IMG/VR virus record: IMGVR_UViG_3300032308_002775
Coordinates: 89,670 to 153,669 of that record
DNA from: a virus
DNA length: 64,000 nt
Reading direction: 5' to 3' (one strand)
Positions 5,435-62,540 of the stretch are shown one piece after another (the first letter of the stretch is position 1; each line of letters opens with the position of its first letter). A program made the translations under genes and the position numbers. The notes under the pieces are model-generated. The model made no database searches and had not been told where the DNA came from. It saw only the letters and a program-made list of their open reading frames with translations.

Positions 5435-7336
5435 GTGCCAGGCCCGCGGCGGTTACTACTGATTCACAAGCGGGCGCCTGGAGACACGGCCGTCTTGACG
5501 GCCCTGGTCAGGGACATTGCCCTGACCCACCCCGGGCAGTTTCAGATCGGCGTCGATACGCACGCCGCGGCGCTTTGGGAGAACAACCCCTACATCGTCA
5601 GCGCCAAGGAACTCCGCGACCATAAAGGGGTCGAGCACCTCAAGCTGACCTACGGAAAGGGGCTGCGGGACCAGAATCACGAGACCGTCCACTTTCTTGC
5701 CTATTTTCACAGGGACTTTGAGGTCCAGGCTCGGGTTCGTGTCCCGCTGACCCTGCCCTACCCAGACCTGCACCTGTCGGCCGAGGAGCGCTCCCAGAGG
5801 CTCGTAGAGGGCCGCTACTGGGTGTTTCTGTCCGGGGGCAAGTCGGACTTCACCGCTAAGGTGTGGGGCCAGGCAGCGTGGCAGGAGACGGTCCGGCAGC
5901 TGAGCGCCCTGGGTATCCCCTGCGTTCAGATCGGCGGTACCGAGAAGGGCCACTGGCACCCCGAGATCCAGGGCGCCCTGAACCTGGTCGGGCGCACCGG
6001 GCTGCGGGACTGGCTCCGCCTGATCTACCACGCCGACGGGGTCATCTGCGGTGTCACCGGGGCCATGCACCTCGCCGCCGCGCTGCAGCGCCCCTGCGTC
6101 GTCCTGGCAGGCGGCCGGGAGGCCTGGTGGTGGGAGGCCTACGTTCGGGAGAACGCCGGGCTGGGCGGCCTGGAGACGGCGCAGAAGCTTACTGTGCCGC
6201 ACCGCTACCTTCACACGATCGGGCTTCTGGATTGCTGCCAGGCCCACGGCTGCTGGAAGAACAAGGTGCTGCCCCTGAACGGCGACCAGTCAATCTGTAA
6301 ATACCCCGTCGTCCAGCCTGGCCAAGCAGTTCCTAAATGCCTGGATATGATTACGCCAGAGCACGTTGTCGAGGCCGTGATGAGCTATTACGAAGACCGC
6401 ACTCTGCCGCCCATCAAGCCGCTGGCGGAGGTCACGCGTTACCGCCCCGCGGCGTCAGAGGAGCCCGCCCCAGCGCTGGTGCTGGTTCCGGACGCAAAGT
6501 TTGAGCGGGCCGAGGCAGGCGTTCCCAATACCGTGATCCCCACCGGCGCTCCGGACAAAGATATCTTTGAGAATCCGGTCATCGGCGGGAAGTTCACTGT
6601 CTGCGTCCTGTTCTACGGGCCGAAGCAGTACCACCCGCTTCACATGCGCTGCCTGAACTCGATTATCTCGACCTGCCCGCCCAACCGAATCGACCTGCGC
6701 GTCGGTTCCAACGAGCTGTGCGAGGAGACAGCCGCGGTGTTAAACCGGCTCGTCGACCACGGAATCGTCACCAAGCATTATCAGCACGCCGAGAACGCGC
6801 TGAAGTACCCGGTGATGCGGGAGATGTTCCACGACTCGGAGTGCCCGATCACGACGAATTATCTGCTCTGGTTTGATGACGACTCGATCGCCGACAGAAA
6901 CCAGCAGTGGCTCACGCTGCTGACGCAGACAATCCTGGCCAACCCAACGGCCGGGCTGTTCGGCGCCGACATGACGATCCGCCTTGCGCCCAGTCAGCAG
7001 CAGCTCTACCGCACGCGGCCGTGGTTCAAGGGTCGACCTTTTCGTATGAAGAACAAGCGCCCGGCGCCAAACGGAGACAACACCGTGTTCGTGGCGGGCG
7101 GGTTCTTCTGCCTGAAGACCGAAGCGATGCGTGCCGCCGACGTGCCCGACGCGGCGCTTACGCACAACGGCGGCGACTATACAATCGGCGAACAGCTCTA
7201 TCAGGCCGGTTATGAGGTCGTCGGATGGAATCGACAGAAGCAGTTCATTCACACCTCGAGCGTCCCGCGGCGTGGCGAGAGCCAGCCGCATTTCGGCACG
7301 GAAAGGTGGCAGTCCACAACCGGAGACCGGCGATGA
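5435..7336 (+). CDS. GT9 (ADP-heptose heptosyltransferase-like) domain fused to a C-terminal GT2-like domain
   Basis: APGD, AKVW, NLVGRTGLRDWLRLIYHADGVICGVTGAMHLAAALQRPCVVL and CLDMITPEHV are GT9 hallmarks. The C-terminal half has CLNSI and LLWFDDD (GT-A DxD). Confidence 0.85.
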   Translation: MPGPRRLLLIHKRAPGDTAVLTALVRDIALTHPGQFQIGVDTHAAALWENNPYIVSAKELRDHKGVEHLKLTYGKGLRDQNHETVHFLAYFHRDFEVQARVRVPLTLPYPDLHLSAEERSQRLVEGRYWVFLSGGKSDFTAKVWGQAAWQETVRQLSALGIPCVQIGGTEKGHWHPEIQGALNLVGRTGLRDWLRLIYHADGVICGVTGAMHLAAALQRPCVVLAGGREAWWWEAYVRENAGLGGLETAQKLTVPHRYLHTIGLLDCCQAHGCWKNKVLPLNGDQSICKYPVVQPGQAVPKCLDMITPEHVVEAVMSYYEDRTLPPIKPLAEVTRYRPAASEEPAPALVLVPDAKFERAEAGVPNTVIPTGAPDKDIFENPVIGGKFTVCVLFYGPKQYHPLHMRCLNSIISTCPPNRIDLRVGSNELCEETAAVLNRLVDHGIVTKHYQHAENALKYPVMREMFHDSECPITTNYLLWFDDDSIADRNQQWLTLLTQTILANPTAGLFGADMTIRLAPSQQQLYRTRPWFKGRPFRMKNKRPAPNGDNTVFVAGGFFCLKTEAMRAADVPDAALTHNGGDYTIGEQLYQAGYEVVGWNRQKQFIHTSSVPRRGESQPHFGTERWQSTTGDRR

Positions 7337-7689
7337 GCGTGGCAGTTCTTACGCGCGACGACTTTGCCAAGCTGCTGTTTAGCGTCGACTTTTTTCGAGC
7401 CAACCCGGCGTTCGCACCCGTCGAAGAACAGATCGCAGCCTGCAAAACCGCCTATCTGGAAAGCGCCGCAAAAAGCACCTGTCGCTGCGGCGGAAAGCCG
7501 GGCCTGCTGTTCGATTGTCTTGACGCTACGCTCGCCCTGATGGAGACGTTGCGCAGCGCCAACCCGGAAGCGCTCCAGGCGCTGATTGCGTACGTGCGCG
7601 ACCAGCGAAACGACCCGAGAATCAAGTCGATTACGCTATACTATCGCAAGACGGCAGACATTCCGTTGTTGAAGGTCAAATATCCATGA
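7333..7689 (+). CDS. Hypothetical protein
   Basis: ATGA overlap with the upstream gene; SD GGAG. Confidence 0.6.
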   Translation: MSVAVLTRDDFAKLLFSVDFFRANPAFAPVEEQIAACKTAYLESAAKSTCRCGGKPGLLFDCLDATLALMETLRSANPEALQALIAYVRDQRNDPRIKSITLYYRKTADIPLLKVKYP

Positions 7690-61849: not shown

Positions 61850-62540
61850 TTTAACGCCGGACTGGCATCTGCAACTTACGACAACTCAATTATCCGCGTA
61901 TCTGCGGTATCAATTTGTCCGGTATTACGAGAACGAGCCGGATTGGGATGCGCCGGTACATAACCGCAAGCGCGCAAACTGGGACGGCGGCAAGGACTCT
62001 TACGGCGTCCGGCACTCGTCGGCCTGGTCCAAGATTGCGCGGCTGATTCGCGACTATAAGGCGGATCCCGGGCTGTGGGTCGCGGCGCATTTCTCGGGCG
62101 TTCAGTACGTCCGGCAGGTTGCGCAGACCCATGTCGTGCCTGACATGCGGCCCAACCGGCTGTGCAGCGCGCAGTCGCCGAGCGTGTACGAGGACTACGT
62201 GCGCGCGCTGCCCAAAATGCTTAAAACGGGCCTCGACGTGGCCGGGGCGACGATCGCTAACAGGATTCGCGGCACGCAGACGCTGGGCATGCCGCCGGAA
62301 GACCAGGTCTTTTACGTCCTGTGTGACGCAGGCTACGTTTCTGCCAGTCCGTTTTTCCGCTGCGCCTTTGCCGAGCAGCTCCACTGCCCGCGCGCCGTGG
62401 AAAGATATCTTTGGAACGCCGCGCTGGACTACGAAGCCCAGCAGCGCGTCTACGACACTGCCGTCGAGCCGTGGTGCATTACCGACGCGCTCCGGGCCGC
62501 AACATTAGAAATAAGGAAGCACTGGAGGGAGTTCGCATGA
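61809..62540 (+). CDS. Hypothetical protein between two helicases
   Basis: SD GGAG; coupled to both neighbours. Confidence 0.65.
   Translation: MTLKEAGAAAAETDLTPDWHLQLTTTQLSAYLRYQFVRYYENEPDWDAPVHNRKRANWDGGKDSYGVRHSSAWSKIARLIRDYKADPGLWVAAHFSGVQYVRQVAQTHVVPDMRPNRLCSAQSPSVYEDYVRALPKMLKTGLDVAGATIANRIRGTQTLGMPPEDQVFYVLCDAGYVSASPFFRCAFAEQLHCPRAVERYLWNAALDYEAQQRVYDTAVEPWCITDALRAATLEIRKHWREFA

Follow-up and report, generated by a model that had tools for sequence, protein, structure and literature searches.

An evenly spaced array of a 14-bp palindrome in a clade of large uncultured phages, and its predicted dimeric reader

A 153,669-bp viral contig from the IMG/VR database (referred to here as G000; 60.4% GC, estimated completeness 75%) contains 40 copies of the 12-bp palindrome WWWGATATCWWW, 18 of which lie in the last 64 kb, the stretch of 64,000 nt that was analysed as the window. 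The array is real, its sites are symmetric and evenly spaced, it is restricted to a single clade of phages in which it is spelled in different dialects, and it turns over at constant density. On balance, we think that the sites form a recognition array for one protein, predicted to be a clade-specific and most likely phage-encoded homodimer that binds double-stranded DNA. Positions are in window numbering unless marked as contig positions. The array-bearing genomes are G000 and its relatives G001, G002 and G003; G004, G005 and further large contigs are the array-free genomes used for comparison.

Over-representation of the palindrome

The 18 copies in the window compare with 0.03 +/- 0.17 in dinucleotide-preserving shuffles (shuffle maximum 1), and the core hexamer GATATC is present 29 times against 5.65 expected, a surplus that is due to the 18 copies flanked by A or T (W). 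Pattern matching on the window places all 18 copies exactly where the initial annotation of this DNA had listed them, with the same letters and at spacings of 1218-6299 bp (mean 3285 bp). The half-matches that it mentioned are also real (31287, TCGGATATCTAT; 41475, GCCGATATCTTT), as are the extensions to perfect palindromes of 16 bp at 24042-24057 and 18 bp at 48865-48882. Its statement that sites inside genes are read in all three frames holds for the contig, in which the 27-28 gene-internal sites encode about 17 K/F/I/L-D-I-x, four xRYL and six or seven xKIS/LIS peptides. In all, 28 sites are observed inside the coding sequences of G000 against 1.39 +/- 1.04 in a codon-preserving shuffle, and 36 inside those of the complete G001 genome against 1.33 +/- 1.10 when synonymous codons are shuffled within genes.

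Alignment of the site-bearing proteins shows that the sites are never 12-bp insertions. Array-free orthologues keep the same or similar residues and encode them with GC-rich codons, as in the following three examples.

QRYL: CAAAGATATCTT in the array-bearing genome, CAGCGCTACCTG in the array-free orthologue
KDIK: AAAGATATCAAA in the array-bearing genome, AAAGACATCAAA in the array-free orthologue
KDIN: AAAGATATCAAT in the array-bearing genome, AAAGACATCAAC in the array-free orthologue

The DNA word has been written in at places where the protein can accept K/F/I-D-I-x, xRYL or xKIS. The orthologue codon comparison and the synonymous-codon shuffles together back the earlier proposal that selection acts on the DNA and not on the protein.

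Symmetry, dialects and placement of the sites

For the analysis of flanking bases and placement, the 159 sites of the four array-bearing genomes were pooled and oriented by the local gene strand. Site information reaches one to two bases past the 12-mer and is mirror-symmetric, with C, G or A at position -1 (T in just 2/159) and G, C or T at position +12 (A in just 5/159). The dyad is 14 bp, VWWWGATATCWWWB, with the half-site V-W-W-W-G-A-T, and the symmetry first claimed for the 12-mer therefore holds over this greater length. There is no directional signal within +/-30 nt of the oriented sites.

The GATATC core is invariant across the array-bearing genomes and the flanks vary as dialects. The core-adjacent base is A in about 86% of G000 half-sites, and is mostly A in G001 and G003 too, whereas it is T in about 86% of the half-sites of G002, which uses TGATATCA in place of AGATATCT and whose form of the 14-bp site is CATTGATATCAATG, compared with CAAAGATATCTTTG. 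Half-sites are mostly AAAGAT in G000 and G003 and a mix of ATAGAT and AAAGAT in G001; those of G002 are ATTGAT, TTTGAT and AATGAT, and the site there is frequently TCATTGATATCAATGA. If a homodimeric reader shifted its specificity, one position of the half-site would be expected to change symmetrically in this way.

Of the pooled sites, 58.5% are deep in coding sequence, 27.7% are intergenic (a five-fold excess), 11.3% are in the first 50 nt of a called gene (a two-fold enrichment) and 2.5% are in the last 50 nt. The motif includes TAG, TGA, TAA and ATG, and several junction sites double as a stop or start codon. Because the motif carries these triplets, gene junctions and non-coding DNA are the cheapest places for it, which can account for the intergenic bias. 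The five junction sites described previously in the window (20050, 28276, 34575, 38896 and 45736) are correct by our own gene calls, and a sixth is present at 62401, just before the start codon at 62411.

Density and spacing are conserved while individual sites turn over

Site density is 0.20-0.26 per kb in all four array-bearing genomes. The sites are also more even than random in all four: the gaps have a coefficient of variation of 0.58-0.66, where randomly placed sites give 0.96 +/- 0.14 (P <= 0.003 for every genome), and the longest gaps are shorter, and the shortest gaps longer, than chance predicts. Individual positions are much less stable, and the number in common with G000 falls with divergence, from 20/27 in G003 and 23/35 in G001 to 9/38 in G002. 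Where a site is not shared, its nearest replacement lies at a median of 431-642 nt, compared with about 1,150 nt in the null (P = 0.01 for G003 and P = 0.03 for G001), and the same trend in G002 is not significant (P = 0.15). Synteny breakpoints are not concentrated at sites. Because density is constant and gaps are even while single sites turn over, the conserved property is coverage of the chromosome, at about one site per 4 kb, and not the particular sites.

The array is confined to one clade

The window encodes a large terminase (TerL), an AAA ATPase, an SbcCD-like nuclease pair, superfamily 2 (SF2) and DnaB-like helicases and a DEDDh exonuclease, as well as a heptose/glycan module with a glycosyltransferase family 9 (GT9) enzyme, an HldE-like enzyme and an epimerase. 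Upstream in the contig are the genes for a multisubunit RNA polymerase (a beta-beta'N fusion of about 1,470 aa and a beta'C chain of 626 aa) and a sigma70-like protein. The polymerase chains and the sigma70 region-3 protein (contig 36846-44123 and 75232-76044) are conserved in every relative examined. Nucleotide searches find no close cultured phage, and the nearest by TerL protein is only about 30% identical. A terminase search identified 54 related viral contigs, and the larger ones differ sharply in the number of sites.

G001: 203.9 kb, complete, 49 sites
G002: 197 kb, 40 sites
G003: 119 kb, 30 sites
G004: 205 kb, complete, 2 sites
G005: 168 kb, 2 sites
Ten further large contigs: 0-4 sites each

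Three relatives thus carry the array and twelve other large relatives have 0-4 sites, while shorter loci of the closest relatives contain the motif at 1.5-4 per 10 kb. In a quick maximum-likelihood tree of TerL all carriers form one clade (Shimodaira-Hasegawa-like approximate likelihood ratio test [SH-aLRT] support 86, inner node 98), and because of this the array appears to have arisen once. The motif is therefore specific to a phage lineage, as the initial annotation had supposed, with one clade bearing the array and its sister phages lacking it. The GC content is 58-62% in the array-bearing genomes and about 47-57% in the array-free ones, apart from two that lie outside this range (59% and 66%). 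In G004 and G005, k-mer enrichment and a scan for gapped palindromes reveal no other array in its place; enriched k-mers in G004 were considered and, from inspection of the words by eye, come instead from a collagen-like coding repeat.

Individual sites in the window

The 18 sites are listed below with their coordinates; no strand is assigned to them. Agreement with other genomes refers to the same aligned position.

6557..6568, AAAGATATCTTT: in the gene for a 633-aa GT9 glycosyltransferase (5435-7336), read as KDIF; position also occupied in G001, G002 (as AATGATATCTTT) and G003
11729..11740, AAAGATATCTTT: in a small open reading frame (ORF; 11525-11836), read as KDIF; also in G001
15475..15486, AAAGATATCTAT: in an 880-aa gene (13231-15873), read as KDIY; also in G001 and G003; G002, G004 and G005 use other codons
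17526..17537, AAAGATATCAAT: 21 nt into gene 17505-17957, read as KDIN; kept in all four array-bearing genomes; the residues are spelled AAAGACATCAAC/T in G004 and G005
20050..20061, TTTGATATCTTT: between the convergent ends of 19584-20054 (+) and the large terminase gene 20061-22022 (-)
24044..24055, AAAGATATCTTT: in 23664-24128, read as KISL; core of the 16-bp palindrome; common to G000, G001 and G003
28276..28287, ATAGATATCTAT: its first base is the final base of the AAA-ATPase stop codon (gene 26783-28276)
34575..34586, ATAGATATCTTT: intergenic, 8 nt past the stop of 34004-34567 and 13 nt ahead of 34599
35793..35804, AAAGATATCAAA: 39 nt into 35754-36038, read as KDIK; also in G002 and G003; G004 has AAAGACATCAAA
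37601..37612, TTTGATATCTTT: 39 nt into 37562-37927, read as FDIF; the residues are spelled TTTGACAT(T/A)TTT in G002 and G004
38896..38907, ATAGATATCTAT: spans the TAG stop of 38438-38899 and ends at the ATG of 38906
40690..40701, AAAGATATCTTT: in the NAD-dependent epimerase gene (40045-41013), read as KDIF; also in G001
42812..42823, TTTGATATCTAT: 35 nt into 42777-43601, read as LISI
45736..45747, AAAGATATCTAT: intergenic, between a tRNA-Asn (GTT) gene (45642-45715), which lies 20 nt upstream, and the ATG of 45746-46195
48868..48879, AAAGATATCTTT: in 48589-49731, read as KDIF; core of the 18-bp palindrome; also in G001
53028..53039, AAAGATATCTAT: in 52157-53131, read as ERYL by way of a rare AGA codon; also in G001; G002 has GCGCGCTACCTG
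56187..56198, AAAGATATCTAT: in the SbcC/Rad50-like gene (55663-57819), read as KISI; also in G001
62401..62412, AAAGATATCTTT: immediately upstream of the DnaB-like helicase start (62411-)

Candidate readers

The initial annotation interpreted the sites as an array for a dimeric protein and named three candidate binders in the window. Symmetry, clade restriction and dialect all fit the general proposal, but the three named proteins fail because none has the phyletic pattern of the array. The product of 41037-42500, described as ParB-like, has no Pfam or PHROG match; by iterative search it has homologues in G002 and two neighbouring ones in the array-free G005, and none in the complete G001 or in G004. 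This 487-aa protein contains a DGxHR-like stretch that by eye resembles ParB/sulfiredoxin domains, without a family match. The second candidate, a fusion of helix-turn-helix (HTH) and deoxyhypusine synthase (DHS) domains, is present in all five genomes that cover its region, array-free ones included. Its gene (47427-48644) is conserved family-wide and joins an XRE-type HTH (by eye) to a deoxyhypusine-synthase-like or GSU2086-like domain, for which the NCBIfam match (E 2e-27) is below the cut-off. The third proposal concerned a pair of nucleoid-like proteins, a description that is fair by eye, but their distribution does not follow the array: 24739-25473, in which an acidic N-terminus is followed by a short helical domain and, beyond a Lys/Ala/Pro-rich linker, by a second helical domain at the C-terminus, has homologues in 6/6 genomes including array-free ones, and its shorter paralogue 24281-24694 is missing from the array-bearing G002.

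Two of the functions first suggested for the array are similarly disfavoured. A partition system of the parS type would be without its defining protein, because the ParB N-terminal domain PF02195 has no match in G000 or the complete G001, although a very remote ParB fold is possible. Stoperators of a lysogeny repressor are unlikely because no integrase was found, there being no tyrosine (PF00589) or serine (PF00239) recombinase in five genomes, the complete G001 included; the site is also symmetric and has no strand-linked flank signal.

The genes present in array-bearing genomes and absent from G004 and G005 comprise the heptose/glycan module, a PAS protein and a set of ORFans, with the module making up most of those that are annotated. 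A basic 110-aa clade-specific protein (16962-17294) is modelled as an all-beta SH3-like barrel, with weak matches only, to SH3b, BAH, an integrase C-terminal domain and Cren7, and is no more than a lead. An early protein of G001 with an HTH-like stretch and an AT-hook (both by eye) was also considered and set aside, the hook being lost in G002. The heptose/glycan module is restricted to the array-bearing clade and is dispersed over several loci (window 5435-7336, 40045-41013, 49731-51245 and 52157-53131; contig 18047-19651, 19633-20634 and 25013-25642) that encode a GT9 fusion, a GT9 N-terminal paralogue, an HldE-like kinase/adenylyltransferase, the epimerase, GT25 and GT2-like enzymes and a Methyltransf_24 protein.

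One concrete candidate lies outside the window. Contig 16569-17240 encodes a 223-aa PD-(D/E)xK protein of a family with 20 proteins, all in close relatives and all at least 55% identical, in which E65, D102, D113 and K115 are invariant (16 sequences). G000, G001 and G002 carry the gene, and the corresponding locus of G003 contains a very diverged one (E 0.023); a conserved site is located about 190 bp downstream. The structural model is confident (predicted local distance difference test [pLDDT] 82, predicted template modelling score [pTM] 0.84), and its leading structural matches are all PD-(D/E)xK nucleases, with I-Ssp6803I at Z 7.7, Hje/Hjc at Z 5.5-6.0 and NhoI, DpnI, PvuII and EcoRV at Z 4.3-5.9, scores that are below the distinctive level (Z under 8, Foldseek E at least 0.07). 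Neither a PDB sequence search nor an ESM Atlas search gives anything firm for it. Homodimeric enzymes of the PD-(D/E)xK fold typically read palindromes, and for this reason the modelled protein may be the reader of the array, which we offer as a lead and not as a finding; it may simply be a resolvase.

The approximately 330 bp that follow this gene (contig 17241-17569) are 73-83% identical in nucleotide sequence in G001, G002 and G003, do not keep a reading frame, hold an array site and have no Rfam match. The slot between the PhoH-like and ferritin-like genes is occupied by differing small nuclease-like genes across the relatives (G003 L090:4066-4587 and L090:5026-5520; G004 30747-31340; G005 117904-118404; these others were recognised by eye) and looks like a variable nuclease cassette.

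A dimeric reader and its alternatives

The scenario that we favour is that each monomer of the reader would contact one half-site V-W-W-W-G-A-T of the VWWWGATATCWWWB dyad, that selection would maintain about one site per 4 kb, evenly spread, in place of any particular site, and that the bound protein would act chromosome-wide by marking, coating, bridging or processing the DNA. We infer the homodimeric state of the reader, its encoding by the phage and its action once bound; that it would work along the whole chromosome and not on single genes is argued by the selection for density and evenness over particular sites. Several points weigh against this scenario. About 40 proteins, clade-specific ones among them, show no DNA-binding domain when scanned against Pfam, PHROG and NCBIfam, and the clade-specific proteins are mostly ORFans without a recognisable one. 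About 50 kb of the genome (about a quarter) is outside the contig, and the equivalent region of G001 contains further ORFans found in G001 and G002 only. The reader may also be encoded by the host, and the five-fold intergenic preference could signal a regulatory role beyond relaxed constraint.

Programmed cleavage or nicking is one alternative, in which the clade's PD-(D/E)xK protein would recognise the palindrome and nick or cut the phage's own DNA every 4 kb or so as a rare-cutting restriction- or homing-type nuclease, with the outcome of seeding recombination-dependent replication together with the SbcCD-like nuclease or of leaving T5-like interruptions in virion DNA. The confinement of this protein family to the clade, its invariant catalytic residues, the confident model with nucleases as its leading structural matches, and the co-occurrence of gene and array in three genomes with a conserved site nearby all speak for it, but we consider it unlikely. 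The structural scores are modest, Holliday-junction resolvases match equally well and a phage resolvase is the ordinary expectation; the array-free G004 and G005 have other nuclease-like genes (by eye) at the same locus, and G003 shares the G000 dialect although its homologue is barely recognisable. Double-strand cuts at palindromes would moreover fragment the genome, and no protecting adenine methyltransferase of the two families searched, PF02086 (Dam-type) and PF01555 (N6/N4), is present in the five genomes. An extended version, to which we give little credence, joins the array and the PD-(D/E)xK protein in one system, a rare-cutting self-directed endonuclease with evenly spaced private sites that would serve recombination-dependent replication or self-marking, its dialects arising from specificity drift. 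A restriction-modification target of the EcoRV type (GATATC) was considered separately and rejected, given that PF02086 and PF01555 methyltransferases are lacking in five genomes and that the site is enriched and not avoided.

It is similarly improbable that the sites are transcription signals, be it as promoters used by the polymerase and sigma factor of the phage or as operators or roadblocks at which a global repressor would act, in the manner of the phiC31, P1 and Cluster A operators discussed below. The intergenic and first-50-nt enrichments, the location of several sites 0-150 nt ahead of starts, a density like that of operon-scale signals and the phage's own multisubunit polymerase and sigma70-like protein would suit such a role, but most of the 159 sites are deep in genes, including the 1471-aa polymerase gene, and the flanks are without directional signal. 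Array-free relatives conserve the polymerase and sigma factor just as well, no integrase, serine recombinase or ParB that would indicate lysogeny was found, and the intergenic bias can be put down to the stop and start triplets in the motif. Another motif that looks like a promoter, TAGCTAAA-N~16-GGCATAT, precedes genes in both G001 and the array-free G004 and is a better promoter candidate than the array site.

Recognition by a host factor, such as a nucleoid protein, a regulator or a Chi-like or uptake-like system, of sites that the clade gained on a change of host is a still more doubtful proposition. Chi and uptake sequences are also evenly spaced and written through codons, no phage reader has been found, and the higher GC content of the array-bearing phages is compatible with a different host group. 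However, a Chi or uptake sequence has no symmetry and is recognised on a single strand, unlike the array site, which needs both halves: just 5/19 other GATATC copies have a three-base W flank on even one side. The dialect follows phage phylogeny, and among the matches listed for CAAAGATATCTTTG across 185,579 species genomes there are singletons in unrelated taxa and none that recurs, which is weak evidence. That the sites have no function and are footprints of mobile elements, mutational bias or gene conversion is barely credible. Nothing beyond the shortness of the motif recommends it, and it is largely refuted by the in-place substitutions that bring in disfavoured codons, by the even spacing, by the lack of any link to synteny breakpoints and by a density that is held across a divergence erasing three quarters of the positions.

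Relationship to known systems

In the literature, a search for the motif brought up nothing but EcoRV substrates and cloning oligonucleotides. The closest published analogue is the set of 17-bp dyad repeats of the Cluster O mycobacteriophages (PMC4351075). Corndog and its relatives contain a short inverted repeat in more than 30 copies genome-wide with no transcription orientation; in Corndog 14 are intergenic, 10 are near gene 5' ends and 10 are inside ORFs (Cresawn et al. 2015; PMC4351075). A dimeric protein acting in a process other than transcription initiation was predicted, and these phages have no integrase and no parAB (PMC4351075). The repeats have been unexplained since 2015 and are the only published parallel that we found. 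The array described here similarly consists of tens of perfect dyads genome-wide (40 in 153.7 kb, 30-49 in the relatives), has orientation-free flanks and a mix of intergenic, gene-start and intragenic locations, and occurs in a complete genome, G001, from which PF00589, PF00239 and PF02195 are absent. The two differ in that the Cluster O repeat is 7+3+7 (TGTTCGGNNNCCGAACA) and the site here uninterrupted (WWWGATATCWWW), in that one belongs to a 70-kb Mycobacterium siphovirus and the other to an unrelated uncultured phage that is about 200 kb in size and encodes an RNA polymerase of its own, and in that the sites of Corndog become denser toward one end of the genome, whereas those of the array are evenly spaced with 58% deep in genes. 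The dialect and the array-free sister group are documented for this array in contrast to Cluster O.

Dispersed palindromes of 13-16 bp, many of them far from promoters, are also seen in the KorB OB sites of the IncP plasmid RK2, in ParB-parS and in Noc and its binding sites (NBS). RK2 has 12 OB sites on 60 kb, about one per 5 kb; a dimer binds them and from there exerts its effect at a distance. The 14-bp dyad falls within this size range, but no ParB-family protein was detected in the complete array-bearing genome, and its bearer is a lytic-looking phage and not a plasmid. Many operator copies per phage genome, some intragenic, are known from the Cluster A stoperators, the conserved inverted repeats (CIRs) of phiC31 and the C1 operators of P1, which belong to temperate phages and have an immunity repressor as reader. 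Of these, stoperators and C1 operators lack symmetry and follow the direction of transcription (PMC4351075). The array differs in that its site is a perfect, unoriented dyad and in that no integrase was found in the phage. The nick sites of T5 are like the array in being a short phage-specific sequence that recurs along a large linear genome. They are asymmetric and on one strand, however, whereas the site here is symmetric.

Other features of these genomes

We note that four consecutive genes at 1131-4834 (195, 235, 72 and 654 aa by our own calls) are without a homologue in five relatives and that this region, in which an 802-aa ORF (2426-4834) is also open, has the lowest GC content of the window (56.5%). 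The lack of homologues and the low GC content together suggest that the block is a recent insertion. The promoter-like motif in its form TAGCTAAA(T)-N~16-GGCATAT is found in G001 (for example at 12311, 16955, 27598, 38679 and 151063), in G004 (4366-4396 and 14945-14975) and at contig 57886, and a related motif, a T-run with TTAGCTAT(C/T)AGCGC, is located downstream of genes; these are probably the true promoters of the family with adjacent terminator-like signals. Hairpin-type palindromes of the form GGCC-N5-GGCC are over-represented in both the array-bearing G000 (31 against 9.5) and the array-free G004 (38 against 5).

Conclusions

Selection that is strong enough to put rare codons into dozens of essential genes, and that maintains one site per 4 kb although single sites turn over, implies a chromosome-wide process in large lytic phages, and we know of no textbook mechanism that covers such a chromosome-wide array of sites. 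The array-free sister group, the dialect and the short list of clade-specific genes together make the predicted reader findable by comparative genomics and a binding assay.

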